A DNA stretch of 32,000 nt from Acaryochloris marina MBIC11017 (GCF_000018105.1 NC_009927.1:60001-92000), one strand, 5' to 3'. Shown: positions 12,882 through 28,799, numbered from the stretch's first letter. A program made the numbers and translations. The notes: generated by a model from the letters alone, not told the origin.

Positions 12882-13290
12882 ACGAGGTAGCGATAATTTT
12901 TTGTCTAAGTTTTAGTGAAAATAAGATATGGGTCGAATATTTTATGTTGGCGCAGTCCGATTTTCCGATTTAGTAGAGATCAAAGAGGGCTAAGACAAAT
13001 CTTTCAAACTGCTCTAGGGTCAAGTAGGTGTGAATCCATTGATTAGACTAGGTTTGAGATATCTGCACTCCTAATCGAACGTCAAACTAAAGGCTGGAGC
13101 CATTTTAGTCTGCGTCGGTGTGATGTTTGAGTCTATCACTGGCTAATCACCTGGTCTGTCTACATGGAAGTGTCTGAAGATTTTCAAAGGGGTGAGGTTG
13201 TTGAACCGCTTCCAAAATGACATTAGATCCTCCAGCAAAGCTGACTCATAATTTTACGTTTTGGTCAGTTTTTGGTAATCACAATTTAGA

Positions 13291-13307
13291 ATGATAATCA
13301 TTATCAT
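13291..13307. promoter_or_regulatory. Fur-family (Zur/Fur-type) operator, box A
   Basis: Perfect 8-1-8 palindrome ATGATAATcATTATCAT. In context, tAGAATGATAATCATTATC matches the classical 19-bp Fur box GATAATGATAATCATTATC at 17/19. It overlaps a TAGAAT -10-like hexamer (13287-13292) upstream of the COG0523 gene. Confidence 0.75.
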
Positions 13308-13484
13308 AATGAAAAACCTCATCCCTCTCATTATTTGTGAACCATCGGATTGATATTGCCATTATTGGGGCAGGTCCCCAGGCGCTCACCCTCTTTACTC
13401 AGCAATTGGAGGACACCATTGACTAACTCAACTGCAAGCGTTCAAACATCCCAATCCCTCGACATCAAGCTGCCCAAAAAAGGC

Positions 13485-14522
13485 ATGCCCGTTACGATCA
13501 TTACGGGGTTTCTAGGAAGTGGCAAAACCACACTCCTCAACCATATTCTCAATACCAGCCAAGACCTGAAGGTCGCCGTACTGGTCAATGAGTTTGGCGA
13601 TATTGATATTGACAGTCAGCTGTTGACCACCATTGATCAAGATATGGTCCAGCTAACCAATGGCTGCATCTGCTGCACGATCAATGATGACCTGGTGGAG
13701 GCGGTCTATTCCGTCCTAGAGCGAGAGGAAAAAATTGATCATATGGTCATCGAAACCACGGGGGTGGCAGATCCGCTACCGATTATTCTCACCTTCGTTG
13801 GTTCTCAACTGAGAGACTTAACGACTTTAGATTCCGTTATTACCTTGGTGGATTCAGAAACCTTTACCCCGGAATGTTTTCAGAGTGAGGCGGCCCTGAA
13901 TCAAATTACCTTTGGCGATATTGTCGTTCTCAACAAAACCGACCTAGCCGCTGATCAAAAGGTGGAAGAACTAGAGCAGTGGATTCGTGAGCAAAAATGG
14001 GGTGCGAGGCTGTTGCGATCTCAACAGGGCCAAGTCCCTCTACCCCTGATTCTGGATACTACCCTCTTTGATCCCAAAGCATATGAAGAGGAAGTCAAAG
14101 CCTTTGCGGAGCAGGGGACTCATCATGATGAACATGACCATCACCATCATGATGAACATGACCACCACCACGGCGAACATGACCATCATCACCATGGCGA
14201 TCACGATCATCACCATCATCATTCTGAGCACCTCACCATAGATGGATTTTCGTCAATGGCCTTTGAAAGCGATCGGCCCTTTGTTCTAGAAAAAATGCAG
14301 GCTTTCATTACCGATCAGCTACCAGAAGATGTCTTTCGAGCTAAGGGTTTTATGTGGTTTGAGAAAAATACATCCCGCTATATTTTTCAGCTCAGTGGCA
14401 AGCGCTATACGATGGACAGCGATCAGTGGCCTGATACCCCAAAAAATCAGCTGGTCTTTATTGGCCGCAATATTGACACAGCTCAGCTAAAACAACTGCT
14501 AACGGATTGCTTGGCCCCCTAA
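13485..14522 (+). CDS. COG0523 (CobW/ZigA/YeiR-type) metallochaperone GTPase with a His-rich insert
   Basis: Walker A GFLGSGKTT, metal motif GCICC, ETTGVADP and NKTDL. The His-rich segment is HHDEHDHHHHDEHDHHHGEHDHHHHGDHDHHHHHSEH. The start is uncertain: ATG 13485 (MPVTIITG), or TTG at 13419 or 13350. Confidence 0.9.
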   Translation: MPVTIITGFLGSGKTTLLNHILNTSQDLKVAVLVNEFGDIDIDSQLLTTIDQDMVQLTNGCICCTINDDLVEAVYSVLEREEKIDHMVIETTGVADPLPIILTFVGSQLRDLTTLDSVITLVDSETFTPECFQSEAALNQITFGDIVVLNKTDLAADQKVEELEQWIREQKWGARLLRSQQGQVPLPLILDTTLFDPKAYEEEVKAFAEQGTHHDEHDHHHHDEHDHHHGEHDHHHHGDHDHHHHHSEHLTIDGFSSMAFESDRPFVLEKMQAFITDQLPEDVFRAKGFMWFEKNTSRYIFQLSGKRYTMDSDQWPDTPKNQLVFIGRNIDTAQLKQLLTDCLAP

Positions 14523-15492: not shown

Positions 15493-17346
15493 TCAGGCAG
15501 CAAAGGTAAAGTCATCGGCATTGAGAGACGTTGTGCCCATCAGTCGAGCAATAGTTGTTCCACCGATCCCAATTTCGGTATCGTCTCCAGTGACTGTTAG
15601 GGCAAGACCGTCAAATTTTAGATCTCCTTGCCCAGAGATACCAATTATGTCAAGGCCCTGCTCAAAGTCAACGATGGTGTTGGTGCCCTCCGGCAATTCA
15701 CCGTTAACAATCCAGAAGGCATCAGAGCCAGCACCTCCAGACAGCTTGTTGTCTCCGCCAATTTCTGTGAAGAAGCTATCGTCTCCGTCTCCACCAAGAG
15801 CGCGGCCATTGCTTCCCAGGAAGAACTGATCATGTCCTGCCCCACCGGAGAGTCTGTATCTTGAAGCTTCAGTTGCCTCAAATATGTCGTCTCCAGCACC
15901 ACCAAAGGCTCTATCGCGGTCTGCCACAAACGTAATGTCATCACCACTGCCGAGGCTGATGCGATTATCGCCAGCTGTGCTTCCAGCGATCGCTGTATCA
16001 ACGTCGTCATTTCCTGCCCCAGCAAAAACCATGTCACTAACACCATCAAAGCCAGGTGTAATAGATGCAAACAGATCATCGGCTTCGCTACTGCCTGCCA
16101 CAATATTGGAGTCTGTAGGAATTAGTTCCGTATCCGGTAGCGGGACTGTTTCATTTTGGGGAGAAATCAAAGCATAAGTCCCTGCAATATCGCTTGGAGC
16201 TTGGATGAAGGTCAGATCGGGATCTTCAAGTTGGGCAATGACATCGCCGGATAGTGTTGAGATTTGTAAGAGTGTGAAGGTTTCTCCGCCAAATTCCACT
16301 TCAATATTCTCGAATTGGTAATTTTCAATTGACTTTGCCATGATGAGTTGATCTTCTTTCGGATCAAAATCGCCTATTAAGGCATAATCTTGATCACCTT
16401 GCCCGACATAAAAATCAGTTCCATCATTTCCTAGCAAAATGCGGTTAACACCAAAGGCACCATGGAAGTGGTCATAGTCACCACTTCCAGTTGTTGCAGT
16501 GGTGATCACTTGGGTGGAAGGATCATAGGAAGTGATCGGCATTCCTGCGATGACCGCATTTCCCAAGGCATAGAAGAAAGAGTCACGACCCACTACACCA
16601 TTGAAAAACGTGAGTCGCTCTTCGTTAATTCCTGCCGCGAGAAAATGATCCCAGCCAGAATTATAGTCACCTGCATCCAGCAAAGCTTCTACATCAGGAT
16701 TGGCTGCCAGATATGCTGTTTCATTGAAATAGGGTTTACTACGGCTCGCATAGAAAGAATTTTCAGGTGCAAACAGTAGAATTCCGTTACTGGTAAATAA
16801 GCCATCTGGAATGAGCTGGGGAACATCTTCGATAATGCCTATCAGATCTCCATTTCTAGAGATATGGACACTGTTGTCGATGGTCTCAAAATCGTAGTCT
16901 TCAGGATTGCCAGCCAGATAAATAGCATCCTCACTGAAGGGGTCAAAAAAGCGAATTAAGGCGTAGTCGCGATCGCCTTCTCCCAAATAAAAATCTTGCG
17001 GGTTCTCTTCTGCATTATCCCCCAGGTAAAAAATGTTGCGTCCCGGTGAACCTAGTAGCGTGTCAAACTCCCCCACACCAAATGACTCAACTTGAGCATT
17101 GACCAATCTTCTTCCTGATTTAATGGATTGTACAGGCACCCCAAATATCGAGGATGTTTGTCCAGAGCTATGGATAATGTCGTCACCTGTCGTGCCGTTG
17201 AAAATTACACCATTACGCTGTTGAAATTGTCCAATCTGCACGTATTCTTCTAGTCCAGAAGCATATAGACCTTGGGCTACTGCTTCAGCAACTTGTGGGT
17301 TTTGATCTAGATAGATTGCCTCATTTAAAAAAGAATTGCTTGTCAT
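15493..17346 (-). CDS. RTX-type (hemolysin-type Ca-binding repeat) secreted protein with a duplicated N-terminal domain
   Basis: C-terminal GGxGxD nonapeptides (GAGNDDV, GSGDDIT, GGAGDDIF, GGAGHDQF, GGDGDDSF, GGAGSDAF). No signal peptide. There are two ~190-aa internal repeats (FLNEAIYLDQNPQVAEAV... and YFNETAYLAANPDVEALL...; ..GEGDRDYALIRFFDP.. and ..GQGDQDYALIGDFDP..). Confidence 0.9.
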   Translation of the reverse strand: MTSNSFLNEAIYLDQNPQVAEAVAQGLYASGLEEYVQIGQFQQRNGVIFNGTTGDDIIHSSGQTSSIFGVPVQSIKSGRRLVNAQVESFGVGEFDTLLGSPGRNIFYLGDNAEENPQDFYLGEGDRDYALIRFFDPFSEDAIYLAGNPEDYDFETIDNSVHISRNGDLIGIIEDVPQLIPDGLFTSNGILLFAPENSFYASRSKPYFNETAYLAANPDVEALLDAGDYNSGWDHFLAAGINEERLTFFNGVVGRDSFFYALGNAVIAGMPITSYDPSTQVITTATTGSGDYDHFHGAFGVNRILLGNDGTDFYVGQGDQDYALIGDFDPKEDQLIMAKSIENYQFENIEVEFGGETFTLLQISTLSGDVIAQLEDPDLTFIQAPSDIAGTYALISPQNETVPLPDTELIPTDSNIVAGSSEADDLFASITPGFDGVSDMVFAGAGNDDVDTAIAGSTAGDNRISLGSGDDITFVADRDRAFGGAGDDIFEATEASRYRLSGGAGHDQFFLGSNGRALGGDGDDSFFTEIGGDNKLSGGAGSDAFWIVNGELPEGTNTIVDFEQGLDIIGISGQGDLKFDGLALTVTGDDTEIGIGGTTIARLMGTTSLNADDFTFAA

Positions 17347-17376: not shown

Positions 17377-17399
17377 ATGAGAATGATTATCATTCTCAT
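17377..17399. promoter_or_regulatory. Fur-family operator, box B
   Basis: Perfect 11-1-11 palindrome ATGAGAATGATtATCATTCTCAT. The core GAGAATGATTATCATTCTC matches the 19-bp Fur box at 16/19. It lies 31 nt upstream of the RTX-like gene ATG (17346). Confidence 0.7.
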
Positions 17400-17844: not shown

Positions 17845-18888
17845 TTAAGAACTAGTTCCCACTAAGGTCTTTGCAGATTCTTCTGTTGGCAGAGGCCCAA
17901 GCTTGACTCCATCAGGATAGTATTCCCAACCATCTCTGATCTGGATGTCTTTATCCCAGGGTAACTGGTACTTTCCTTCCGCCAAGTCCTTTACCCAAGT
18001 CAGGTAATTTTCACGCTCTCCACCAGGTTTACCCACGTAGCCTCGGCAACCAACATTGAAGACATTGTTTTCAAGAGCCCAGTTTTTGCGGGCCTCATCT
18101 ACCAGTCTTGGGAATAATTCAGCCGTCACAATTTCCCAAGGATTACGATGGCCCTGCTGAAGTACATTGCCATCGTAGTTGCAAACAGTTCCTTCACCAA
18201 AGTAGTAAAACACACCGTCATAACCCGCCAAGTTGACGGAGATGGTGTACATCAAGTTTTGCCAAGCATTAGTTTGATTGGTCAAGATCCACTGATCATT
18301 GACCTGAGTTGAATATCCTGAGATGCGAATATAAACGTTGCACCCTTTATAGGCAGCTTCTCGCGCTAATTCAGGGAACATCCCATCATGACAAATACAA
18401 ACTGCTAGTTTAGAGCCTTTCGGTCCATCACATACGGGCATCCCATAATTACCTGGATACCAGGGCTCAATCGGTACCCAAGGCTGCAATTTGCGATAGT
18501 GAAGGGCAATTTCTCCTTGATCATTAATGATAATTGCAGTGTTGAATGGGGGAAGTCCAGGTACATCATTTTTCTCCATAAGAGAAAAGACTCCCCAAAC
18601 TTTGTTGCGCACACAAGCTTCTTTGAACTGATCAATTTCTGGACTATCTACTGTCAAAAGCATTTCGTCATATGTCCAGATTTTTGTGTTAAGTCCTTGA
18701 GTGGAGTACTCTGGCATCACAATCAGATCCAAGCCAGGATAACCTGCTTTAGTGTTGTCAACGGCTTTACAAATTTGCTTGACCTGAGTCTGAATATCTT
18801 CGGGGCCAGTGATAACTGGAACCGGATATTGAATCATGGCCACTAGCAGAGACTCGGACCATGAACTGACACTTCCTGTACTACCCAT
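17845..18888 (-). CDS. amiF: formamidase (nitrilase-superfamily aliphatic amidase, AmiF type)
   Basis: Long stretches match Helicobacter pylori AmiF as I recall it ([78 protein letters not shown]). The start is placed at MGSTGSV (ATG 18888, AGGAGGA 8 nt upstream). The 27 codons upstream in the track ORF look spurious. Confidence 0.93.
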
Positions 18889-18970
18889 ATCGAAGTCCTC
18901 CTGAGGACAGTGGTATATGACCAGCATCATATGGGGGCAGATATGTGAGTTATGTATATGCCCACACAAA

Positions 18971-18991
18971 TGAGAATGATTATTATTCCCA
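18971..18991. promoter_or_regulatory. Fur-family operator, box C (imperfect)
   Basis: TGAGAATGATtATTATTCCCA, with half-sites complementary at 8/10. It shares aTGAGAATGATTAT with box B. It lies 83 nt upstream of the amiF ATG, in the divergent region shared with the gene at 19194. Confidence 0.55.
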
Positions 18992-19193: not shown

Positions 19194-19367
19194 ATGACTG
19201 CTGAGGAATTGTTGGAGCGATATGCTTCTGAAGAAAGGGACTTTGCTGGCGTTGATTTGCTTGGTGCCAATTTGGCTGAGGCCCAATTAACTGAGGTGTG
19301 CTTGAATCAAGCTGATTTAACTGACACAAATCTGGTTGATGTATGCCTAATTGATGCTCGGAATTAG
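19194..19367 (+). CDS. short pentapeptide-repeat protein (57 aa, possibly truncated)
   Basis: MTAEELLERYASEERDFAGVDLLGANLAEAQLTEVCLNQADLTDTNLVDVCL... The N-terminus is typical of cyanobacterial pentapeptide-repeat proteins, but only about 7 pentapeptides precede the stop. Confidence 0.55.
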   Translation: MTAEELLERYASEERDFAGVDLLGANLAEAQLTEVCLNQADLTDTNLVDVCLIDARN

Positions 19368-19538
19368 CTAAATTTATTTATTTCAGCAAGACCTAAATAT
19401 GCCTGTAGGTGTTGAGACCCGCAAACTTAGTTCCAATTATTCAGTTATTGCCGGGCAGAACCTCCCCCAGGGCAGAGCCACAGACTGAGCACAAACTATT
19501 GTTCATGTTCCGCCAGTTAGATGGTGATCAGGTAGTCA

Positions 19539-19943
19539 TCATGGTTTCTTTGTGGCAGCAATGGCCAGTTTCGCACCTTCAATTTCGCGAATGCGATCCA
19601 TCACCGTCACGACGCGGCCATGACTCACTTGGTCATCTGCATGAATCACCACCACTACCTTGTCAGCTGAATCAGTTAGCTCCTTCACTTCTGCCTCAAG
19701 GACGTTGAGCTGAATGGGTTCTCGATTGAGAGCTAAATCCCCCTGCGCATCAATCGTGACCGTCACCTTGGTCGATAGCTGTGGTTTTACTGTCTTTGCC
19801 TGGGGCAAATTAACAGGTAAGGCATCACTGCGGTTGAGGAATAACGTGGCAATGATAAAAAAGGACAGAATTGCAAAAATAACATCAATCATCGGCACAA
19901 TATTGATTTGAGCCGATGGACTGGGATCATCGGGTAAGCGCAT
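19539..19943 (-). CDS. exbD: ExbD/TolR family biopolymer transport protein
   Basis: 134 aa; the INIVPMIDVIFAILSFFII signature transmembrane segment is present. It overlaps the upstream exbB by 17 nt. Confidence 0.9.
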   Translation of the reverse strand: MRLPDDPSPSAQINIVPMIDVIFAILSFFIIATLFLNRSDALPVNLPQAKTVKPQLSTKVTVTIDAQGDLALNREPIQLNVLEAEVKELTDSADKVVVVIHADDQVSHGRVVTVMDRIREIEGAKLAIAATKKP

Positions 19944-20580
19944 GATTCACCCTGCCTCTTTCATAGCGGTGACGATAAAGCAACTCCAACTGCCCCCCAT
20001 GCTCTTGAATAAAGGCCAACTGGCGCTGATATAAACTGCGAAACATATTGGCAAAAATCAGGGTTGAAATGGCGACAATCAATCCCGCAGCCGTTGAAAT
20101 TAGGGCGGTACTTATTCCCCCGGTGACTTCTGCTGATTCACTACCGCCGATATTGCCTACATCTAGGGAGGAGAAGGAGTTGATCAGGCCCAATACCGTC
20201 CCTAATAGGCCGAGTAAAGGGGAAATACTAATGATGGTGTCAAACACCGTCGTAAATCGTTTCAATGTCGGCAATTCAGCTTGAGCTTCACTTTCTAATG
20301 CCAATCGGAATTCTTCCGGTGTCGGGTCTTCTAAGGACAAGGCAGCTAAGAATATCCGGGCAATCGGAAATCTTGCTTGCTCTTGGAGATACCTCAAGGC
20401 GTCATAGACATTATCTTGGCGATAAAGCTGCAGTGCCTGTTTGACGATCCGCAACTGGTTGCGATTCACCCTCGTCCAAAAGATGAGGCGTTCAAAAATC
20501 AGTGCGATCGCAATTAACGAAAAAACCATGAGCGGGAGCATCACCACTCCTCCCGCAATAATCACTTGGCCAAACTGCAT
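19927..20580 (-). CDS. exbB: MotA/TolQ/ExbB proton-channel protein
   Basis: 217 aa with three transmembrane segments. The conserved ..ISPLLGLLGTVLGLI..F........GGISTALISTAAGLIVA.. region is present. Confidence 0.9.
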   Translation of the reverse strand: MQFGQVIIAGGVVMLPLMVFSLIAIALIFERLIFWTRVNRNQLRIVKQALQLYRQDNVYDALRYLQEQARFPIARIFLAALSLEDPTPEEFRLALESEAQAELPTLKRFTTVFDTIISISPLLGLLGTVLGLINSFSSLDVGNIGGSESAEVTGGISTALISTAAGLIVAISTLIFANMFRSLYQRQLAFIQEHGGQLELLYRHRYERGRVNHALTR

Positions 20581-20795
20581 TTTGTTGATACCCCTCCATT
20601 CATTACAGCGACAAGAGAAGACCGATTACTCTGACCGTAACCACAGCAAACGGCATTAGTTCTGAGAGCATAAAACTGCGAATAAATACACCAAGAGGCA
20701 CTGATACAGCAACCACCCTTGCTGCACGCTGAGCCTATAAAGCGATGTCGAGATTTCGGCATAATCGGCCATATATGAGACATTAAATCCATAAC

Positions 20796-21878
20796 TTAAT
20801 ACAAGGATTGCTGCCGCTTTAACATCAGCCAAATCAGGATGGGGGCACCCAGCACAGCCATCACTGCATTGAGGGGTAGAACGGACTGACTCCCTGGAAG
20901 TTGAGAGATCGCATCGGCAATCAAAGCTAAGATGGCACCGAGCAGAGCCACAGCTGGGACTAGGATGCGATGATCGACGGTTCGAAATAAACTCCGGCAC
21001 AGATGCGGGACAGCGACTCCCACAAATGCAATAGGTCCACAAAAGGCCGTAACCGATCCTGATAATAAGGAAGAACTGAAGATCAAAAGGCATCGGGTTC
21101 GATTGACAGACAGCCCTATACTTTGAGCTTGCGCTTCCCCCAGTAACAGCAAATTTAAAGCTTTATGCAACAGTTGTGATCCCCCAAGTCCTAAGGCAAT
21201 GACAGGCAACAACAAGGGCATCTGTTGCCAAGTCACATTCGAAAAACTACCAAAGGTCCAGTTGAGGTATGCCTGGGTCTGAGTAAGCAAACTGAAATGC
21301 AAAAGGATAGTCACTAGAGCAGTGGTCATATACCCAAACATGAGGCCAAAAATAAGCAGTGCTAAAGCACTACGCACCCGTTGAGCCACTAGTAGCACCA
21401 CCCCCATGGACATCCCTGCGCCCAAACTGGCCGCCCCAATAATGCTGATCTGAACAAAACCATTGCCAGCGTTAGCTGTCCCTCTAGTTAAAACCACGAG
21501 AGCGGCCCCCAAACTAGCGCCAGCATTAATGCCTAGCAAGGAAGGCCCTGCAAGTGGATTGCGGAATAATGCCTGTAGCTGTAATCCGCTCGTTGCTAAG
21601 GCAGAACCCGCTGCGATCGCAGTTATCGTTCTAGGCAATCGAAACTGGAGAATAATCTGTTGCCAGGTCGGATTCGTGGCCTGACCTCCGAACAACACAG
21701 TGATCACGTCTGATAGGGGAATCGAGACAGATCCAAAAGCCAGGCTGACTAGCACCCCCATTAACAAGACACTACTTAGAACCCCTAAACCAGCGTAACG
21801 GCTGATTTGCGGCCTTCCATGTAGTGGGTCGGGAAGATGTCTATCGTTCCCATCAGTCATCGCTGAGGACATATCCAT
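20796..21878 (-). CDS. FecCD/BtuC-family ABC transporter permease
   Basis: 360 aa. RLPRTITAIAAGSALATSGLQLQALFRNPLAGPSLLGINAGASLGAAL is the family signature. About 9-10 hydrophobic segments. Confidence 0.93.
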   Translation of the reverse strand: MDMSSAMTDGNDRHLPDPLHGRPQISRYAGLGVLSSVLLMGVLVSLAFGSVSIPLSDVITVLFGGQATNPTWQQIILQFRLPRTITAIAAGSALATSGLQLQALFRNPLAGPSLLGINAGASLGAALVVLTRGTANAGNGFVQISIIGAASLGAGMSMGVVLLVAQRVRSALALLIFGLMFGYMTTALVTILLHFSLLTQTQAYLNWTFGSFSNVTWQQMPLLLPVIALGLGGSQLLHKALNLLLLGEAQAQSIGLSVNRTRCLLIFSSSLLSGSVTAFCGPIAFVGVAVPHLCRSLFRTVDHRILVPAVALLGAILALIADAISQLPGSQSVLPLNAVMAVLGAPILIWLMLKRQQSLY

Positions 21879-21881
21879 TTC

Positions 21882-22661
21882 TCACTGCTGTACATATTCA
21901 ACCCGTTGTACCCAAGTGCGATGAGTGCCATTAGGATCAAGAGATAACAGCCGAAACCCAGGCAGATGAGTATGATCAGTTGGTACAGGTGGATTCACCT
22001 GTAAACAAGTGGAAGGACAACCGTAGAAGTAAATCGGTGAGGGACGTTGGCTGAAAACATGCTGATACTGGAAGTCCAAGTGGATATGTCCAAACAGCAC
22101 CACTTTCACTTGTGGGAAGCTCTCCAACAGGGTGAGCAATGCATCAGCATTTTGCACCTGCATTTGATCCAGCCAGTCGATACCGATTGCCACAGGATGA
22201 TGGTGTAGGGCAATCACCGTAGGTTTATGAGGATGTTGAGTCAAGACTGATTGCAACTGTTGCAAGGCGCTGACTGATAAATACCCTTCACCAAACTGAG
22301 CAGAAGGCAACACTGAGTTGAGTGAAATAAGCAGCCAGCTCCCCAGATGAATTGCCTGTGGCCCATAGAGTTGAGGAGACTGCAGTTCCCGATGCATGGC
22401 CTCAACTTGATCATGGTTACCAGGCAGCCAGTAAGCTGGCATCTTCAAGGGTAAGATTGCTCTCATTAAATGCTGATAAGCAACGACACTCCCTTGATCG
22501 GCTAAATCCCCCGTTAAGAGAATTCCATCCAGTTGATCTCGATTCACTTGCTGCAGAACAGCCTGTAAGGATTGCCAAGGATTAGTCCCTCGTAGCAGTG
22601 CCGTTGTATCTGCCAACAGATGGGTATCACTGATTTGTGCAAGCGTAATGGGGGCCGTCAT
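21882..22661 (-). CDS. metallophosphoesterase (CpdA/Icc-like class III phosphodiesterase fold)
   Basis: Motifs DTHL, GDLADQG, GNHD, HHHP and GHIH occur in the canonical order. Its ATG overlaps the stop of the binding-protein gene (ATGA), and its stop is 3 nt from the permease ATG. Confidence 0.88.
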   Translation of the reverse strand: MTAPITLAQISDTHLLADTTALLRGTNPWQSLQAVLQQVNRDQLDGILLTGDLADQGSVVAYQHLMRAILPLKMPAYWLPGNHDQVEAMHRELQSPQLYGPQAIHLGSWLLISLNSVLPSAQFGEGYLSVSALQQLQSVLTQHPHKPTVIALHHHPVAIGIDWLDQMQVQNADALLTLLESFPQVKVVLFGHIHLDFQYQHVFSQRPSPIYFYGCPSTCLQVNPPVPTDHTHLPGFRLLSLDPNGTHRTWVQRVEYVQQ

Positions 22662-23920
22662 GAGTCTAATTTTTGGTAATAAATCAGTTGATGATTAGGC
22701 AATAACTCTGGGTGGAAAATCTTGATCAAGTCTGCTAGTACCTTATGGGGGTTTACAACCCCGCTTTCCCAATAATCGTTGCCGCCAGCAGCATTGACCC
22801 GAGCCGTATTATTGAAGACGCGATCAGCTTGGACTGCAGACAGTTGACCGTAGCGAGCATCGGTTGAGATCGCATCTTGTCTCGATCTCCAATCTTGGCT
22901 GACATTAACCCAGAACTCAGCCTTCACTGCTCGATTAAACACTGCTTCAAAGTCCAGGGGTAGACTCCCTCTTGCATCTGACTCTGACCAGAGATAGTTG
23001 GCACCTGCATCCTGCAAGAGCTGGGACACATAACTTTTGCCTCCCGGCATATACCAGGTGCCATTGTGACTAAACCCCGTAAACACCGTGGGACGTTGGG
23101 CCACAGATTGAGCCAACTGCACCATCGATTGATACTCTTGGGCTATATCGGAAAAGACCTGTTCTGCCTGCGCTTCTTGATTAAAAAATAGGGCCGTATA
23201 CTTTAACCACTCTGCTTGTCCCAGGGGGGATTCCTCCATATATTCCCCCACCAGGGCAACGGGTAGACCTGCCTTGACCAGACGAGGATGACTATCTGTG
23301 TCTGGGTTACCCGTTCCATAGGTCATCACCAAATCCGGTGCTGTCACCAGCAGCCGCTCCACATCTAAGGTATTGCCAGAATTAAACTCAACCAGTTCAC
23401 CCCGATCAATTTTGGCCCGCACCTTTAGACTATTCACTTGCTTAAACTGGCTGACACCGACAAGGGTATCTAGCTGACCTAACAGTTCCAAGTGAGGTAA
23501 ATAGGTCGTGGATAGCACGACTAGACTGCTAATCGGTACTTCCACCATCGGCAGATCTTCAAAGCCTGGGGGTTTGGGTGTTCCACACTGCACTAGCAGA
23601 TACTGAAAGGTTTGGTTTGCCCCTTTCCAGGGATTCTGAACGGTAACTATTTTGTAGTGACGGTGATACTCTACCGAGAAACCCACGGCATAGTCAGACT
23701 GGACCTTATTGGGGAAATAATCTTGAGTAGGATCGTACGCAACAGGACATTGATCGGCAGAAGTTGGTGAAGAATCAGATTTCAGGGCTGATGGTGATTG
23801 GGTTGGCTGGCAACCAACTCCCCCTAGGAATCCAACGACAGCCAATCCCGCCGTTACTTTCAGCAGTCGAATCCAGCCAGAAGTAGCGTAGTCACTGATG
23901 GATGCTTTGGGTTCCTTCAT
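22658..23920 (-). CDS. ABC transporter periplasmic substrate-binding protein (siderophore/heme/B12 class)
   Basis: The region ..VVLSTTYLPHLELLGQLDTLVGVS......VERLLVTAPDLVMTYG... is typical of FhuD/BtuF-class binding proteins. The start is set at MKEPKAS (23920), giving a signal peptide ending GGVGC and avoiding a 92-nt overlap with the upstream gene. Confidence 0.88.
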   Translation of the reverse strand: MKEPKASISDYATSGWIRLLKVTAGLAVVGFLGGVGCQPTQSPSALKSDSSPTSADQCPVAYDPTQDYFPNKVQSDYAVGFSVEYHRHYKIVTVQNPWKGANQTFQYLLVQCGTPKPPGFEDLPMVEVPISSLVVLSTTYLPHLELLGQLDTLVGVSQFKQVNSLKVRAKIDRGELVEFNSGNTLDVERLLVTAPDLVMTYGTGNPDTDSHPRLVKAGLPVALVGEYMEESPLGQAEWLKYTALFFNQEAQAEQVFSDIAQEYQSMVQLAQSVAQRPTVFTGFSHNGTWYMPGGKSYVSQLLQDAGANYLWSESDARGSLPLDFEAVFNRAVKAEFWVNVSQDWRSRQDAISTDARYGQLSAVQADRVFNNTARVNAAGGNDYWESGVVNPHKVLADLIKIFHPELLPNHQLIYYQKLDS

Positions 23921-23936
23921 CCTGTCGTCGCTAGGG

Positions 23937-24824
23937 CTATACAGAGGCTTGAGTTTTGATCGGGGGATAGACATGGGCTTGAATAGGGCGGCCTTGAGCG
24001 ACATGCTCCTGAACAATTCGGTGGGCAATCTCAGGAGTCACGCGGGTATACCAAGTGCGATCCCCGGAATAAAACACCACTGGCCCAGCAGCACAAACTT
24101 CTAAACAGCCAGAGGTTCTCACGGCAACCTCCAAACCTGACTGCTGTACAGCCGTTTGTAATGCCTCAATAATGGGCTGCACATCCTGAGAGGGATAGCA
24201 GCGGCTGGATCGACAGACTGACAGATAGGGTCGCTTGAGTGGATTCTCAGTATAGGGAATGGGACGAGTTCCCAATACATAAATATCGCGCAACGTTTCA
24301 TAGAGGCTCAGTTTATCCAGTTGGGGTGTCCCTTCCGGTAGCAAGTTCTCGTCGGCATCCACAAAGGGATTGGGTAAAAAGAGATTCATCATCTTTTCTC
24401 CAGCTCCATTCCAGAACTGAATCCCCCAACTTCGTGCTTGGCCGCGATCATTGAAGCGGCGGTAAAACGAGGCTCGCTGTACCTGTCGTTTTCGTCTCAA
24501 CGCTGGAGGGGTTTTGCCGAGGGGACCACCCTGATGTTCTTCTAGGCATAGATGCAAATGCCATCCTGCCGTCACAACCGTCAGATAGCCATCGTACAAA
24601 ATACAAGTTTTAGGGGCTTGGGTAAATTCCAGCTCAAGAACGCTCCCCTCTACTACGTGACCAATCTGGGTTTGTTGCCAGCACTCTTGAAACAGGGTGT
24701 AAAGCAGAGGCCCCAGGACCTCAATGGTGCAAGGAAAATCTTCATACTCGATCTGTCCTCCAGTCGCTAAGGGGTCAACGGTACGGTAGTTTAAAGGGAC
24801 GACTTGACGTGAAAATTCAGACAT
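23937..24824 (-). CDS. two-domain protein: ChuX/HutX-like N-terminal domain fused to a thioredoxin-like [2Fe-2S] ferredoxin domain
   Basis: C-terminal ~90 aa: YLSVCRSSRC...GCLEVCAAGPVVFYSGDRTWYTRVTPEIAHRIVQEHV, the CxxxxC...CxxxC pattern of thioredoxin-like 2Fe-2S ferredoxins. N-terminal ~190 aa: SVLELEFTQAPK..DGYLTVVTAGWHLHLCLEE...SWGIQFWNGAGEKMMNLFLP resembles E. coli ChuX as I recall it (VILEFSGELP..GYFNL..GHIKAE...SILFFNKEGSAMLKIFLG). The N-terminal assignment needs a profile search. Confidence 0.85.
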   Translation of the reverse strand: MSEFSRQVVPLNYRTVDPLATGGQIEYEDFPCTIEVLGPLLYTLFQECWQQTQIGHVVEGSVLELEFTQAPKTCILYDGYLTVVTAGWHLHLCLEEHQGGPLGKTPPALRRKRQVQRASFYRRFNDRGQARSWGIQFWNGAGEKMMNLFLPNPFVDADENLLPEGTPQLDKLSLYETLRDIYVLGTRPIPYTENPLKRPYLSVCRSSRCYPSQDVQPIIEALQTAVQQSGLEVAVRTSGCLEVCAAGPVVFYSGDRTWYTRVTPEIAHRIVQEHVAQGRPIQAHVYPPIKTQASV

Positions 24825-24848
24825 CTTAGTTAAGTCCTACAATAAGTC

Positions 24849-26915
24849 CTAAAAAGTGGCACTCACACCCAGGCGAAAACTCCGACCCACTGCCGGAAAA
24901 CCTGGAAATTGTTCATAATGCTGATCTAACAAATTGTCTAAACTGCCCGTGAAGGCAAAGCTATCCCCAATCGGGAAACGAAGCTTGAGATCGAGCGTGG
25001 TATAGCCCGGCAAGGATTCTGTATTCGTGTTGTTGACAAAGTAGGAACTGAGATAGCGGACAATGGCGGCGATATAGACACCTTTTGCATTCTCATAGGC
25101 CAAACCAACATTGAGGCTATCCGCGCCGCGAAAGCTGAGTTCATTACCTGTAATCGTAGGGTCGCCATCCTCAATAATTTCAGGCTCATTCAAGGTGTAG
25201 TTGGCAAAGGCATACAGGTTTTTGAGCAGTCGCACATTCAAATCCGCCTCTAAACCCAGCGTCCGCACCTTGCCGATATTTTCATAGGTACTAGGGGCAC
25301 CAAACTGAAAGTTAATCAAGTTAGAGATGGTATTGGCAAAGAAGGTGAGGCGTAACAAGCCATTCTCCCCCAGGGATTGGTCAATGCCAATATCAAAACT
25401 ATCGCCCCGTTCTGGCTCTAAATCAGGGTTACCCACCACATTAAAGGCAGCTAAGCCTTCTAGGTTGACGATTTGAGGTGCTCGAAAACTCCTGGCATAA
25501 TTCGCCCGTAAAACCGTGGAATCTCCTATGGCAAGACGAGCCCCCACACTAGGAGAGGTAAAGGAACCATTAGCTAAACTATTGAAATCTTGGCGCAAAC
25601 CAAAATTGAGATTGAATTTTGGCGTAATGTTGACGTCATAACGGGCAAACAAGGCCCCTTGATCAATGCCGCCATCATAGTTAACATCTGTGGTTCCCAG
25701 ACCATAGCTAAAAGTGGTGTTCCGAGACTGGGTATTGCGGTAGTCAAATCCATAGGTCAGGGTTTGGTTTTTGGCGACTTTCCAGTTGTGCTGGACTTGT
25801 GCCCCAATAGAGCGGCGATCAACATCATCTCGTGTGCCAAAGGCTGCAGGGTCTGGATTATCAAAGTTGGAGTCCAGCAGATCCGCAAAAATCCGGCTGG
25901 TGAGTTGGGAGTTGCCCGCCTGGTCCAGTTGGGCTTGCCAAGTCAGATCTAGGAAGAGTTCTTCCGTGGTTTGCCGGGCTAAAGGGGTCAGGCTATTAAA
26001 TTGGCCAATACTGTCGGGAATTGGCACACCCCCAGCCGAGCCAAAATCTTTGTTCAGATAGAGGGCGCTGAAGGTTACCTGGTTGCGATCGCTGAGTTTT
26101 CCTTCCAGCTTCAGATTCAGATTGTTGTACAACACGTCGGCGTTGTTCCGATCTGCTTGCAATCCAATCCGGTTAATCTCAAACGGAAAGTCATTCGTCG
26201 CCTGGGTGCGGGTATAGCCAACGCTCCACCCCAAATCCCCACTGCGCCCCCGAGCCTGCACGGCTTGCTCATTGAGCCCAAAACTTCCAGCCGCAGCTCT
26301 GAGGGTCACCTCCGGTTTTTCGTCAGCAGGAGCACGAGTAATGATATTAATCACGCCCCCTAAGGCATCGGAGCCATAGAGGGTCGATCCTCCACCTGGC
26401 AAGAGTTCAATCCGCTCTATATTGTCCGTCGTGAAATTCGATAGATCAAATCCACCCATAAACCCCACGTCATTAATGGGGCGACCATCTAGCAAAATCA
26501 AAACTTGAGCTGTGTTACTCCCCCGAATAAACTGGCTACTCAGAGCTCCTAGTTGTCCCCCAGCTGTGCCGTCCCTCAGAATTCCTGGGAGATATTTCAA
26601 CGCTTCTTGGACCGTTCTCGCGCCTTGGGCCTCAATTTGCTCGCGATTAATCACATACACCGGGCGAGACGAATCACGCACCGTGCCTTCTCGCCGAAAG
26701 GGGGCATAAACGGGCTGATCTAAGATTTCTCCCGTGACTGTAATTTCTACTTCTTCGTCCTCCACTATCGAAGAAGGTAGGGCCTCCTCATCGGTAGGGG
26801 GATTCGCTTGTGCCAGGCTAGCTCTTGAAGTGTAGCTAAACCAGGCAGTTAAACTGAGTCCAAAAACGAATATGAGCTTCCCAATGACAGGAAACCCAAC
26901 TTTTACACCTTTCAT
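24849..26915 (-). CDS. TonB-dependent outer-membrane receptor (BtuB-like by context)
   Basis: 688 aa with a signal peptide and a TonB-box-like EITVTG. Plug-domain motifs are present (IRGSNTAQVLILLDGRPIND, LYGSDALGGVINIITR), and the beta-barrel ends in the terminal F (..LGVSATF). A cobalamin riboswitch precedes it. Confidence 0.95.
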   Translation of the reverse strand: MKGVKVGFPVIGKLIFVFGLSLTAWFSYTSRASLAQANPPTDEEALPSSIVEDEEVEITVTGEILDQPVYAPFRREGTVRDSSRPVYVINREQIEAQGARTVQEALKYLPGILRDGTAGGQLGALSSQFIRGSNTAQVLILLDGRPINDVGFMGGFDLSNFTTDNIERIELLPGGGSTLYGSDALGGVINIITRAPADEKPEVTLRAAAGSFGLNEQAVQARGRSGDLGWSVGYTRTQATNDFPFEINRIGLQADRNNADVLYNNLNLKLEGKLSDRNQVTFSALYLNKDFGSAGGVPIPDSIGQFNSLTPLARQTTEELFLDLTWQAQLDQAGNSQLTSRIFADLLDSNFDNPDPAAFGTRDDVDRRSIGAQVQHNWKVAKNQTLTYGFDYRNTQSRNTTFSYGLGTTDVNYDGGIDQGALFARYDVNITPKFNLNFGLRQDFNSLANGSFTSPSVGARLAIGDSTVLRANYARSFRAPQIVNLEGLAAFNVVGNPDLEPERGDSFDIGIDQSLGENGLLRLTFFANTISNLINFQFGAPSTYENIGKVRTLGLEADLNVRLLKNLYAFANYTLNEPEIIEDGDPTITGNELSFRGADSLNVGLAYENAKGVYIAAIVRYLSSYFVNNTNTESLPGYTTLDLKLRFPIGDSFAFTGSLDNLLDQHYEQFPGFPAVGRSFRLGVSATF

Positions 26916-26944
26916 CCATACCTCGCAGATGTTGTAAGTGAGTA

Positions 26945-27065
26945 ATAACTCGGCGGGCGTTCTGACTCTGAGGACAAAGCCTCATCACAGTTGCGGGACA
27001 GCGCCGGATTTTCACCGGACTTTCCCCGTTTCCTCTAACGGCTGTTCTCCGTTAGAACCGAATCT
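26945..27065 (-). promoter_or_regulatory. cobalamin (B12) riboswitch
   Basis: The minus strand reads GGAAACGGGGAAAGTCCGGTGAAAATCCGGCGCTGTCCCGCAACTGTGATGAGG...CAGAGTCAGAACGCCCGCCGAG. This carries the conserved GGGAA..GGTGAAAATCC..GCTGTCCCGCAACTGT core and a B12-box-like AGTCAGAAcGCCcGCC. It ends about 30 nt before the receptor ATG. Confidence 0.85.
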
Positions 27066-27187
27066 ATAAAATTGTTTCTGCACCTTATCACAGGAATGAG
27101 ATGCATTAGAGAGAAGCGGAAGGCACATAGGAATTTGCCAATATCTTGGAATAGATTGAACCGCTTGAATAAGTTTTTATACTGAGA

Positions 27188-27204
27188 ATGATAATCATTA
27201 TTAT
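27188..27204. promoter_or_regulatory. Fur-family operator, box D
   Basis: ATGATAATcATTATTAT, with half-sites at 7/8. In context, GAGAATGATAATCATTATT matches the 19-bp Fur box at 17/19. It sits just upstream (minus sense) of a TATAAA -10-like hexamer (27176-27181) and about 120 nt upstream of the riboswitch. Confidence 0.65.
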
Positions 27205-27214
27205 TCTTTTTTGC

Positions 27215-27850
27215 AAACCAGCCCCCAACACCACCAATCGTCGATTGTCCGCAGTCAAGTCAATGGTATGGATGGTCCATCGCCTTGATATGTGCGATTG
27301 GATGTTGGCTGTAGTGGATGGACGGACGGTGAAGCTCTACCGGGATACTCGGGGGATTTCGTCATCGCATGCTGATATACATCAATCAGTTTCCCCTGGC
27401 TGGGTCTCGGAACTATGCGATGACGACACTGTTCTGGGAGGCTGGATTGCGACGGTCTGAGCTGGTGAACTGCGATGTCTGCCATTTTGACCTGGAGCAG
27501 AAACGGTTGTCCATTTTAGGGAAGGGACGGAATGAATGAGAGTGGATTGATCTGACGGTGAGCGGCGTTCAGGGGATTTTCAGGTGGTTGGAGCTACGAG
27601 GGGAATGTGCCCCTACTGATCCATTATTTATATCGTTGGATCGGGTGATAGGGAGTCGTAGTTATCGGTGACATCGTTATGTCGAATAGTCCGGGCTTCG
27701 GCTAAGAAGATGGGGGTAAGTGAAGATTTTGGCCCCCATAATAGTGGCACAACCACATATTTAGAAATGACGGGTGGGGATTTGAGAGGTACCCAGGCAT
27801 ACTCTCGGCATGCCAAGCTCAAGTGGATCAACGAACCATTCAGGTTCCTG
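27215..27850 (+). pseudogene. tyrosine recombinase/integrase remnant (N-terminally truncated, several frame disruptions)
   Basis: Pieces lie in three frames: NRRLSAVKSMV...YRDTRG; then AMTTLFWEAGLRRSELVNCDVCHFDLEQKRLSILGKGRNE* (box I GLRRSE...GKG); then KMGVSEDFGPHNSGTTTYLEMTGGDLRGTQAYSRHAKL (box II, with the HxxR arginine lost). Confidence 0.7.
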
Positions 27851-28799
27851 TATTTTCTAGGAAGGGGGAGAAGACTGGAGCTGACCAACGTAAAGGCAGG
27901 CTGTTTTCTACACAATACCCTTTCGTCAGGTGAAAATGCATTAACCGCTCTGCACCTTCAAATTCAGCAATTTCAGAACCTTCCCAAATCACGTTTGCAG
28001 CACCTGTTAAGTAGAGCAGATCTCCTTGAGTAAAATCTATAAATAGCAGTCCTGCTCTGGGATTTACCTGTAGGTTTCCAAAGGTATTGTAGTGCCGATT
28101 ACCAGCAAAATCTGGAACCGTCAGGGTATGACCACCATCGATTCGAATAAATCCTGGTTTACCTCCACGATGAGAAACATCGACACCACTCGCTGCTCCA
28201 GCTGCATCTGCCTGATAAGCCGTGGCGATAAAAAAGGTATCCGCTGATGTAATCAGAGTCTTTTCTTTTTCTGATAAAACAGAAACCTCATTGATTGTTC
28301 TGGGCGCTCTTGAATCAAATTCACCCAGTTCAGACGTGCGAGCTTGAATATATTGAGGGCAATTGCCAAAGCTCTGCCTAACTTGTACTTCAAAGCCCTC
28401 TCTATGAGTTTTTGTGACAACACCATTCAGCCGATTTCGACGACGGGTATGTAGCTCAATCCCTAAAAAGCCAATGTCAATGCCCAATGCCAGCGTCATG
28501 GCTAAGGGATCGCCGGGTAAGGGCGAAGCATTCACGTTTAGAGTATATCGATCGGGTGTAGAGAGAAAGCCAGGCTCTCCAACTAGAATAGACGCCCAGG
28601 GGTTGCCCATTGCATCTACTGTACCAACGGTCACATAAGGTAATTGCGCAAAGAATCGACGAAATTGTTCGGGCAGATATTCTCGAATGATTCGTCGGCC
28701 TTGCTTATCAATCTGTGTTTGCACATTCAAACGCGATTGAATCGCTAATTCACCTTCATGGAAAGGGGATTCAGTTTTTGTCCAGCCTGGGATTACCAT
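27840..28799 (-). CDS. pyridoxamine 5'-phosphate oxidase-like FMN-binding (split-barrel) family protein
   Basis: 319 aa. The N-terminus ESPFHEGELAIQSRLNV......REYLPEQFRRFFAQLPYVTVGTVDAMGNPWAS and the later FFIATA...DVSHRGGKPGFIRI are typical of this family, from memory. Confidence 0.75.
   Translation of the reverse strand: MVIPGWTKTESPFHEGELAIQSRLNVQTQIDKQGRRIIREYLPEQFRRFFAQLPYVTVGTVDAMGNPWASILVGEPGFLSTPDRYTLNVNASPLPGDPLAMTLALGIDIGFLGIELHTRRRNRLNGVVTKTHREGFEVQVRQSFGNCPQYIQARTSELGEFDSRAPRTINEVSVLSEKEKTLITSADTFFIATAYQADAAGAASGVDVSHRGGKPGFIRIDGGHTLTVPDFAGNRHYNTFGNLQVNPRAGLLFIDFTQGDLLYLTGAANVIWEGSEIAEFEGAERLMHFHLTKGYCVENSLPLRWSAPVFSPFLENTGT

Follow-up and report, generated by a model that had tools for sequence, protein, structure and literature searches.

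A cobalamin riboswitch-led corrinoid uptake operon of Acaryochloris marina that encodes a DUF7676-ferredoxin fusion protein and a metallophosphoesterase

Acaryochloris marina MBIC11017 carries, within a stretch of 32,000 nucleotides (nt) of NC_009927.1 (60001-92000; hereafter "the window", with positions counted from its first letter), a series of minus-strand genes behind a cobalamin riboswitch in which a TonB-dependent uptake system is interspersed with two genes of other kinds. Scanning the open reading frames (ORFs) of the window with Pfam and NCBIfam models, we found in order of reading a BtuB-like TonB-dependent outer-membrane receptor of 688 amino acids (aa; 24849-26915), a 295-aa fusion of a DUF7676 domain with a thioredoxin-like [2Fe-2S] ferredoxin domain (hereafter FUS; 23937-24824), a periplasmic binding protein of 420 aa (22658-23920), a 259-aa metallophosphoesterase of the CpdA/Rv0805/GpdQ class (21882-22661), and a FecCD/BtuC-type permease of an ATP-binding cassette (ABC) transporter (360 aa; 20796-21878). 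Further downstream follow ExbB (19927-20580; MotA_ExbB at 118.6 bits) and ExbD (19539-19943; ExbD at 100.9 bits), the latter overlapping the end of the former. The receptor is separated from FUS by 24 nt and FUS from the binding protein by 16 nt, the binding protein and the metallophosphoesterase genes overlap by 4 nt in an ATGA (22658-22661), and gaps of 3 nt and 215 nt precede the permease and ExbB, respectively. A reading of the window made from its sequence alone (below, the sequence-only reading) had listed the same elements and spacings; all of them are present where it had placed them, and its gaps are exact.

The riboswitch, which that reading had located at 26945-27065, was recovered with the Rfam model RF00174 (cmscan) as a full-length aptamer at 26935-27077 on the minus strand (model positions 1 to 189 of 189; E = 3.4e-12) whose score of 58.3 bits clears the gathering threshold of 31.5. 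It scores 144.5 bits under a second covariance model, R1, that we built from seven riboswitches of the related cyanobacterial loci introduced below. Only 19 nt separate the end of the aptamer from the ATG of the receptor, with a GAGG ribosome-binding site at 26921-26924. Because this leaves no room for a terminator hairpin between aptamer and start codon, the expression platform is likely translational, i.e., the riboswitch would exert its control at translation initiation. Minimum free energy folding of the leader (z = -0.44) revealed no expression platform, and a scan of 19300-27900 for promoters and terminators stayed at chance level, so that we drew no operon boundaries from it.

Of the two extra genes, the one for FUS comes first in the operon. 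The N-terminal domain of FUS (residues 1-190; 24255-24824) matches DUF7676 (PF24724) at 226 bits, and its C-terminal domain (residues 191-295; 23937-24254), a thioredoxin-like [2Fe-2S] ferredoxin domain with four cysteines, matches HydB and Aquifex Fd4 in a phmmer search of the PDB (E ~1e-8). An AlphaFold2 model of FUS computed with 34 sequences reached a predicted local distance difference test (pLDDT) score of 90.3 and a predicted template modelling (pTM) score of 0.88. Compared with the PDB by Foldseek, residues ~200-290 of this model resemble the Aquifex ferredoxin 1m2a (E = 4e-6) and HydB/NuoE-type domains, while the N-terminal 190 residues resemble ChuX (6u9j; E = 7e-6, target-normalised TM-score 0.55), HutX (5exv), the chains 2ph0, 2hqv and 3fm2, and each half of HemS/PhuS/ChuS. 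The sequence-only reading had called this protein a ChuX/HutX-like::[2Fe-2S] ferredoxin fusion, and both halves of that label proved right, the first of them with regard to fold: Pfam says only DUF7676, and the DUF7676 profile retrieved no ChuX or HutX chain from the PDB sequences at E ≤ 10, only noise, so that the likeness is seen by structure comparison alone.

Conservation singles out two sets of residues in FUS. The cluster cysteines C204-x4-C209...C240-x3-C244, which are of the NuoE/HydB type, are invariant in 34 cyanobacterial sequences, and so is the motif W88-H89-x-H91-x-C93 of the N-terminal domain, of which H89, H91 and C93 are still at least 90% conserved in a set of 25 sequences that includes stand-alone homologues. 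The family as a whole shows 60-97% identity over 264 matches and carries no annotation beyond "(2Fe-2S) ferredoxin domain-containing protein". Since FUS has no signal peptide, it should be cytoplasmic. Searches of the literature on DUF7676, on ChuX with cobalamin riboswitches, and on HutX/HemS with corrinoids returned nothing relevant, and neither FUS nor the metallophosphoesterase is characterised in the literature searched.

The transport genes are recognisable by family, and their scores for B12-specific models lie below the respective cut-offs. The receptor matches the Plug (PF07715; 94.3 bits) and TonB_dep_Rec_b-barrel (PF00593; 169.9 bits) domains, its best NCBIfam model is the TonB-B12 family TIGR01779 (210.7 bits, under the cut-off of 599.7; NF007926: 162.7 bits versus 836), and it is 54-58% identical to syntenic receptors of Nostocales. 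The binding protein matches Peripla_BP_2 at 100.8 bits, reaches only 24.9 bits with the BtuF equivalog model (cut-off 234), and found no match among PDB sequences. It likely starts at the ATG at 23920, within a longer TTG-initiated ORF beginning at 24028; with its signal- and lipobox-like N-terminus (...LGGVGC) it is probably a lipoprotein, and its position is that of a BtuF-like protein. The permease matches FecCD at 257.8 bits and has BtuC (NF003001) as its best NCBIfam model, with 200 bits under a cut-off of 334.

For a survey of related loci we scanned one genome per species for FUS relatives and obtained 205, of which 80 loci were kept together with flanks of up to 10 kb; locus counts below are out of these 80 cyanobacterial loci unless stated otherwise, the R1 model stems from seven of their riboswitches, and neighbours were called by tblastn with the window proteins and by clustering of all ORFs. 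R1 gave 77 matches, of which one is in the window and the other 76 are distributed among 62 of the loci. In 51 loci, the co-directional run of genes leading to FUS starts with a riboswitch; in 52, FUS is immediately preceded by the receptor (median gap 40 nt); and in 41, it is directly followed by a binding protein-permease pair, binding protein first. The full co-directional order of riboswitch, receptor, ferredoxin-like gene, binding protein and permease is found in the window and in about 41 of the 80 loci, including those of Nostocales. An ATPase gene is adjacent in 35, and ExbB-ExbD stand beside the operon in about eight, mostly divergent from it. In 18 loci the gene directly downstream of FUS instead encodes M195, an unannotated multi-pass membrane protein of 195 aa that is found directly upstream of FUS in five. 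With either a binding protein-permease pair or M195 as the next gene, FUS is thus associated with the inner-membrane step regardless of the type of transporter. We conclude that FUS is a core member of a cyanobacterial B12-starvation regulon that mostly stands beside the inner-membrane transport step. The arrangement recurs across cyanobacterial orders and is therefore no chance juxtaposition; FUS and the metallophosphoesterase both return in B12 riboswitch-led uptake operons, as the sequence-only reading had expected, and are not accidental neighbours.

An exhaustive profile-free search with the N-terminal domain of FUS found only 176 cluster representatives, many of them stand-alone proteins of 170-200 aa with 30-40% identity. 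We examined seven loci outside cyanobacteria that encode such stand-alone proteins, including an Rfam scan, and all seven are linked to B12: five are riboswitch-led, and three have DUF7676 beside a corrinoid adenosyltransferase. Behind the riboswitch, a metagenomic locus (L090) encodes receptor, binding protein, FecCD permease, ABC ATPase, TonB and DUF7676; an alphaproteobacterial Beijerinckiaceae metagenome-assembled genome (MAG; L094) has receptor, DUF7676 and an M195 homologue; a further metagenomic locus (L095) has receptor, PduO-type adenosyltransferase, DUF7676 and M195 homologue; a soil metagenome (L096) has PduO-type adenosyltransferase, DUF7676, binding protein, FecCD permease and ABC ATPase beside CbiZ and CbiB; and Streptosporangium (L092) has binding protein, FecCD permease, an ABC ATPase fused to a FhuF_C [2Fe-2S] domain, and DUF7676. 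The PduO-type enzymes of L095 and L096 score 192 and 174 bits on Cob_adeno_trans. Of the remaining two loci, one from a MAG assembly (L088) reads FecCD permease and ABC ATPase and, after further genes, DUF7676, a 127-aa ORF, a weakly CbiR-like gene, CobA and CobN, and the other, metagenomic one (L093) has a CbiA/CobQ-like amidotransferase followed by DUF7676.

The CobA/BtuR-type adenosyltransferase of L088 (8104-9108) carries an N-terminal thioredoxin-like [2Fe-2S] ferredoxin domain of its own (CX4C...CX3C) that is 27% identical to the C-terminal domain of FUS over 102 residues (pairwise E = 2e-13); its gene directly follows that of the weakly CbiR-like protein, downstream of the stand-alone DUF7676 gene in the order given above. 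DUF7676 and a [2Fe-2S] domain hence recur together beside B12 importers and adenosyltransferases and are joined in three ways, with the [2Fe-2S] domain fused to DUF7676 itself, to CobA or to the ABC ATPase. In Streptosporangium, the gene of the ATPase::FhuF_C fusion (L092:4205-6004) overlaps the start of the DUF7676 gene, and a second riboswitch-led importer nearby comes with a separate FhuF_C protein. Three proteins of ~291 aa (P0421, P0423 and P0429) are of the stand-alone DUF7676 type with an additional N-terminal domain, PF21006. Two loci have a 127-aa ORF after stand-alone DUF7676; the two ORFs lack similarity to one another and have no family match.

M195, which is not encoded in the window, forms a family of ~190 aa with members at L015:9400-9987 and 26 other cyanobacterial loci as well as at L086:6337-6837, L094:6628-7197 and L095:6558-7121, the homology of the latter two being established by hhalign at probabilities of 99.3-99.4%. 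In cyanobacteria, Gloeobacter and the alphaproteobacterial MAG alike, it always adjoins DUF7676/FUS or a receptor led by a B12 riboswitch, and it has a conserved motif Y-x-(C/H)-x-x-P. Comparison with Pfam, NCBIfam and PDB sequences gave no match, including to BtuM-like or other known transporters. We regard M195 as a candidate for a new inner-membrane B12 transporter.

As a locus, the window represents another case of a published type of cyanobacterial btu operon and not the uncharacterised module of the sequence-only reading, because orthologous operons have been described for Anabaena sp. PCC 7120 (PMC10878165) and Synechococcus sp. PCC 7002 (PMC8123684, PMC12967095). The Anabaena genes alr4027-btuB2(alr4028/29)-alr4030-btuF-btuC-btuD form a polycistronic transcript that is under riboswitch control and induced by cobalt starvation, and BtuB2 is needed for the uptake of cyanocobalamin, with a btuB2 mutant taking up 50-fold less cobalamin (PMC10878165). 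Like the window, this operon has a riboswitch followed by receptor, ferredoxin-like gene, binding protein and permease, and syntenic proteins of Nostocales are 54-63% identical to those of the window. Unlike it, the window lacks the DUF1636 first gene and btuD, and adds the metallophosphoesterase between btuF and btuC as well as ExbB-ExbD downstream. The product of alr4030 was described as ferredoxin-like and left unnamed and unstudied (PMC10878165); judged by synteny and this description rather than by sequence, it is presumably the orthologue of FUS. That canonical btu loci contain no redox protein, as the sequence-only reading had also held, is not strictly true, given that BtuE of E. coli is a glutathione peroxidase (PMC10878165).

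The operon btuB-cpdA-btuC-btuF of Synechococcus sp. PCC 7002 is riboswitch-regulated as cited in PMC8123684 and PMC12967095 and, compared by this gene list alone, shares with the window a cpdA-type phosphoesterase and the lack of an ATPase gene, whereas the gene order is a different one and the list names no ferredoxin-fusion gene. The window carries both extra genes at once. The PCC 7002 operon is said to have been described originally by Perez, Rodionov and Bryant in 2016. Corrinoid import is what we assign to the transport genes of the window because of the riboswitch and the published Anabaena phenotype, and by analogy with the 50-fold loss of uptake in the btuB2 mutant its receptor would transport cobalamin. 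We are confident that the region as a whole is a B12 uptake operon orthologous to those of Anabaena and Synechococcus.

With the cytoplasmic heme carriers ChuX/HutX and HemS/PhuS, FUS shares the fold (Foldseek E = 7e-6 to 1e-3) and the setting of being encoded together with a TonB-dependent receptor and a FecCD-type tetrapyrrole importer, but it belongs to none of their sequence families, has an HxHxC motif of its own, includes a fused ferredoxin domain and stands under a B12 riboswitch. A heme importer, as the ChuX fold might suggest, was considered and rejected, since related loci begin with a B12 riboswitch and cobalamin uptake is lost in the Anabaena receptor mutant. A redox protein in a tetrapyrrole-uptake operon has a parallel in HmuF, a flavodoxin of a heme-uptake operon in Fusobacterium that is reported to take part in both heme trafficking and reduction (PMC10404700); its flavodoxin fold is unrelated, the tetrapyrrole is another one and the substrate of reduction is a breakdown product, which leaves this as an analogy only.

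Zinc may be a second input into the control of this operon. A palindrome, ATAATGATTATCAT (27185-27204, without assigned strand), precedes the aptamer by about 110 nt and overlaps the candidate -10 hexamer of a promoter-like sequence, TTGCAA-17-TATCAT at 27216-27188, which is itself not above chance. This palindrome, of the Zur/Fur type, resembles the cyanobacterial Zur box, and we tentatively assign it to Zur. Boxes of this kind are found at five sites of the window (27185-27204, 18970-18986, 17377-17396, 13288-13307 and 1385-1398), with 12 overlapping matches at ≤2 mismatches versus 0.43 expected. The one upstream of the btu riboswitch is also kept in a 97%-identical relative, the Acaryochloris sp. 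MAG L001, and in related cyanobacterial loci eight of 76 riboswitches have a similar box in the 350 nt before them versus ~1.5 expected. For Anabaena, no more than two receptors are reported to be under Zur control, and BtuB2 is one of them (PMC10957091). Double control of the btu operon by zinc and B12 is therefore plausible in this clade.

The second extra gene, the metallophosphoesterase, matches Metallophos at 68.9 bits (Pfam), has CpdA (NF008359) as its best NCBIfam model with 182.4 bits under a cut-off of 225, and is without a signal peptide. Its closest solved chains are Rv0805 and the "Phosphohydrolase" entries 2zo9, 2dxl and 3d03 (E = 5.5e-16), which we take to be GpdQ of Enterobacter aerogenes, a promiscuous phosphodiesterase. 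Aligned with 2zo9 and Rv0805, it keeps all motifs for the ligands of the binuclear metal site (DxH, GD, GNHD, H and GHxH), and this intact site together with the closest solved relatives indicates that the protein is a phosphodiesterase. Downstream of FUS it occurs in 15 of the 80 loci, either between binding protein and permease or after M195, and it keeps its slot in several cyanobacterial orders; in Allocoleopsis it follows FUS, and in Gloeobacter a riboswitch is followed by receptor, M195-like gene and metallophosphoesterase without FUS. We conclude that it is an optional accessory of the B12 uptake operon. The sequence-only reading, arguing from near-zero spacing, had taken both extra genes for parts of the pathway, and this stands for FUS as a regular member but not in the same way for the metallophosphoesterase, which is facultative and has homologues in unrelated contexts.

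The sole phosphodiester of an imported corrinoid is that of its nucleotide loop, and our preferred guess, to which we give a low probability, is that the enzyme opens this loop in a CbiR-like manner; a genuine esterase for cyclic nucleotides has almost the same probability. CbiR is a metal-dependent phosphodiesterase whose cleavage of the nucleotide loop starts the remodelling of the cobamide lower ligand (PMC7733943), and the likeness extends to being encoded with cobamide genes, a weakly CbiR-like gene also being found two genes downstream of a stand-alone DUF7676. In contrast to CbiR, which is of the AP endonuclease 2 type, the enzyme of the window belongs to the calcineurin-like metallophosphoesterase superfamily. 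To the notion that it is a mere passenger, i.e., a co-located cAMP phosphodiesterase without part in the pathway, we concede a limited yet real chance: CpdA as best model and homologues in unrelated neighbourhoods speak for it, and its return in an unchanged position in Gloeobacter and a number of cyanobacterial orders speaks against it.

Taken as a whole, the locus is on balance best explained as a riboswitch-controlled corrinoid uptake operon in which FUS captures and reduces the corrinoid and the metallophosphoesterase is optional. Genomic context points to a corrinoid as the ligand of the N-terminal domain of FUS, and from fold, conserved residues, gene order and domain fusions we think it probable that FUS handles corrinoids; that it also reduces them appears to us, on the same grounds, an evenly balanced proposition. 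The view of the locus as a module for acquisition plus processing, put forward by the sequence-only reading, remains the best fit for FUS in that DUF7676 tracks B12 importers, riboswitches and adenosyltransferases across phyla. What is established is the RNA element, the gene content with its synteny, the folds and residue conservation, as well as the uptake phenotype published for Anabaena; that DUF7676 binds a corrinoid, that cobalt receives an electron and what the metallophosphoesterase cleaves is what we infer.

In such a scheme, the riboswitch would leave the ribosome-binding site of the receptor open when intracellular B12 is low, and the Zur-type box at the promoter would probably add control by zinc. 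The BtuB-like receptor, powered by ExbB-ExbD-TonB, would take the corrinoid into the periplasm, from where the lipoprotein BtuF-like binding protein would pass it to the BtuC-like permease working with an ATPase from elsewhere. In the cytoplasm, the DUF7676 domain of FUS with its ChuX/HutX fold would capture the corrinoid emerging from the importer, with HxHxC as a possible ligand of the cobalt, and the [2Fe-2S] domain would give an electron to the cobalt, reducing Co(III) to Co(II) and perhaps further while the corrinoid is bound to an adenosyltransferase, on which the Co(II)/Co(I) potential is raised. Reduction would free the upper ligand (cyanide or hydroxide) and ready the cofactor for adenosylation or loading onto enzymes; where present, the metallophosphoesterase might cleave the phosphodiester of the nucleotide loop and so enable exchange of the lower ligand. 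Human CblC (MMACHC) as well as bacterial PduS and CobR reduce imported Co(III) cobalamin, remove its upper ligand and pass it on for adenosyl- or methyl-transfer. The job that we propose for FUS is, by analogy, the same, but these proteins are related to it neither by sequence nor by fold and use flavins or [4Fe-4S] clusters.

Several observations weigh against parts of this scheme. With regard to FUS, the role of DUF7676 is built on context and fold, the ferredoxin domain falls short of the Pfam cut-off (2Fe-2S_thioredx, PF01257; 20.3 bits versus 24.8), and H56 is conserved in cyanobacteria only. A [2Fe-2S] centre of ordinary potential reaches Co(II) and not free Co(I). The btu operon of PCC 7002 works, by its published gene list as cited, without FUS inside it. 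In about 18 of the 80 loci, neither receptor nor ABC genes accompany FUS, and its neighbours are instead MetE, methyltransferase, desaturase-like, CobW, DUF1636 or CbiMQ genes, usually with a riboswitch nearby, which fits membership in a B12-starvation regulon and not import specifically. Regarding transport, a tblastn search with the ATPase of a neighbouring locus found no ABC ATPase (btuD) in the 32-kb window, so that the permease must use one encoded elsewhere, and the 215-nt gap sets ExbB-ExbD apart, their sharing of a transcript with the operon being presumed. The metallophosphoesterase, finally, is absent from 65 of the 80 FUS loci, has a cAMP phosphodiesterase as its best family match, has homologues at 52% and 40% identity in unrelated contexts of two other cyanobacteria, and matches neither AP_endonuc_2 nor CbiR in Pfam and NCBIfam, i.e., it is not related to CbiR.

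Among the alternatives, FUS could be a passive carrier or buffer, a cytoplasmic corrinoid sink that pulls substrate through the transporter and whose ferredoxin-like domain is structural or regulatory. FUS has the fold of ChuX and HutX, which are plain heme carriers, DUF7676 exists as a stand-alone protein without a fused redox domain, and FUS pairs with M195 without an adjacent ATPase gene, where a cytoplasmic trap would aid uptake. We nonetheless think this quite improbable, as the four cluster cysteines are invariant in the 34 cyanobacterial sequences and a [2Fe-2S] domain recurs by DUF7676 in unrelated lineages, which is hard to explain without a redox role.

No better placed is a role in metal salvage, by which FUS would, under metal shortage, reduce or open the imported macrocycle or another chelate to free cobalt or zinc, much like the FhuF-type [2Fe-2S] siderophore reductases. 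The Zur-like boxes upstream of the riboswitch and at four other sites of the window, their enrichment before riboswitches of related loci (eight versus ~1.5), the Zur control of BtuB2 as one of two such receptors in Anabaena, and the induction of the Anabaena operon by cobalt starvation would all suit this idea, and the same is true of the CobW, DUF1636 and CbiMQ metal-handling genes that are often neighbours of FUS, of the FhuF_C domain on the ATPase beside DUF7676 in Streptosporangium, and of the Foldseek matches to ChuS and HemS, proteins that degrade or chaperone heme. Yet destroying a usable cofactor makes little sense under B12 shortage, the control element is a B12 riboswitch and not a metal sensor, the Anabaena receptor mutant loses cobalamin uptake, and the adenosyltransferases beside DUF7676 in three of the seven non-cyanobacterial loci indicate use of the corrinoid rather than its breakdown, so that we consider metal salvage quite improbable as well.

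A plain importer with FUS as a general electron carrier and the metallophosphoesterase as a cAMP phosphodiesterase, both of them co-located housekeeping genes, would agree with the generic annotation of FUS, with CpdA as best model of the metallophosphoesterase and its homologues elsewhere, and with B12 import reported for PCC 7002 with an operon whose cited list holds no FUS, but is very improbable given that the synteny counts (receptor adjoining in 52 and riboswitch-led in 51 of the 80 loci) exclude it for FUS, that stand-alone DUF7676 is B12-linked in all seven loci of other phyla, and that the metallophosphoesterase returns in its slot.

The preferred reading, capture and reduction of the imported corrinoid by FUS, can be extended to a more far-reaching picture that we put forward tentatively and as less likely than not. 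Here, DUF7676 would be a hitherto unrecognised cross-phylum corrinoid handler that has a pocket of ChuX fold with an HxHxC motif and works with a [2Fe-2S] partner as the missing step from import to adenosylation and as a counterpart of CblC, M195 would be a B12 transporter independent of an ATPase, and the metallophosphoesterase would open the nucleotide loop independently of CbiR.

A number of observations concern the surroundings of these genes. In Leptolyngbya sp. JSC-1, a riboswitch is followed by genes for a desaturase-like protein, a methyltransferase, FUS and MetE (L081:4900-11650, the same locus as L013), and the loci L016, L044, L052, L065 and L074 likewise have riboswitch-led operons that join FUS or MetE with a desaturase-like protein and a CMAS-type methyltransferase. 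The same operons carry one or two tandem 150-aa "U152" proteins without family match; their genes are further uncharacterised members of the B12-starvation regulon. The closest relative of the window's operon is that of the Acaryochloris sp. MAG L001, with proteins 87-97% identical to those of the window. At L001:7265-7888 it has two tandem riboswitches, the upstream copy being followed by a 144-aa ORF, which looks like a duplication of the leader and the 5' end of the receptor gene, and genes for an ABC ATPase and a permease, divergently oriented, lie further upstream. In the window the riboswitch is single and the upstream genes are others, and homology between the two begins near 27215.

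Beyond the operon, the window resembles a zinc-regulon island, with Zur-like boxes in front of the btu riboswitch, a formamidase gene, a 617-aa ORF and a COG0523 GTPase gene in addition to the box at ~1385-1398. The formamidase gene (17845-18969, minus strand; NF009803 at 602 bits) has its true start probably at the ATG of residue 28 of the ORF. The 617-aa ORF (15493-17346, minus strand), with the box 31 nt upstream of its ATG, has no match in Pfam or NCBIfam and might encode a zinc-starvation protein. The GTPase of the CobW/COG0523 type (13350-14522, plus strand; cobW at 189.6 bits plus CobW_C) directly follows its box, and a COG0523 GTPase in such a position is typical of zinc-starvation metallochaperones and not of B12 synthesis.

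How bacteria reduce imported Co(III) cobalamin and hand it over to adenosyltransferases is only partly understood, and the known cobalamin reductases are either specific to a pathway (PduS, CobR) or non-specific (flavodoxin, free flavins). The DUF7676 family, placed between B12 importers and adenosyltransferases behind B12 riboswitches, offers a concrete candidate for this processing after import, and its spread over cyanobacteria, a Beijerinckiaceae MAG, an actinomycete and several unclassified metagenomic contigs includes Anabaena, where alr4030 is the presumed orthologue of FUS and where both genetic tools and an assay of uptake are at hand. Many algae depend on cobalamin, whereas the form made and used by cyanobacteria is pseudocobalamin; if an enzyme of this operon remodels imported cobamides, this would matter for the exchange of B12 in aquatic communities. 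The apparent double control by a Zur-type box and a B12 riboswitch would link the economies of two micronutrients. The value of the locus lies in a sharpened hypothesis, namely that DUF7676 and its [2Fe-2S] partner may form a dedicated step of B12 handling after import that is conserved across phyla.

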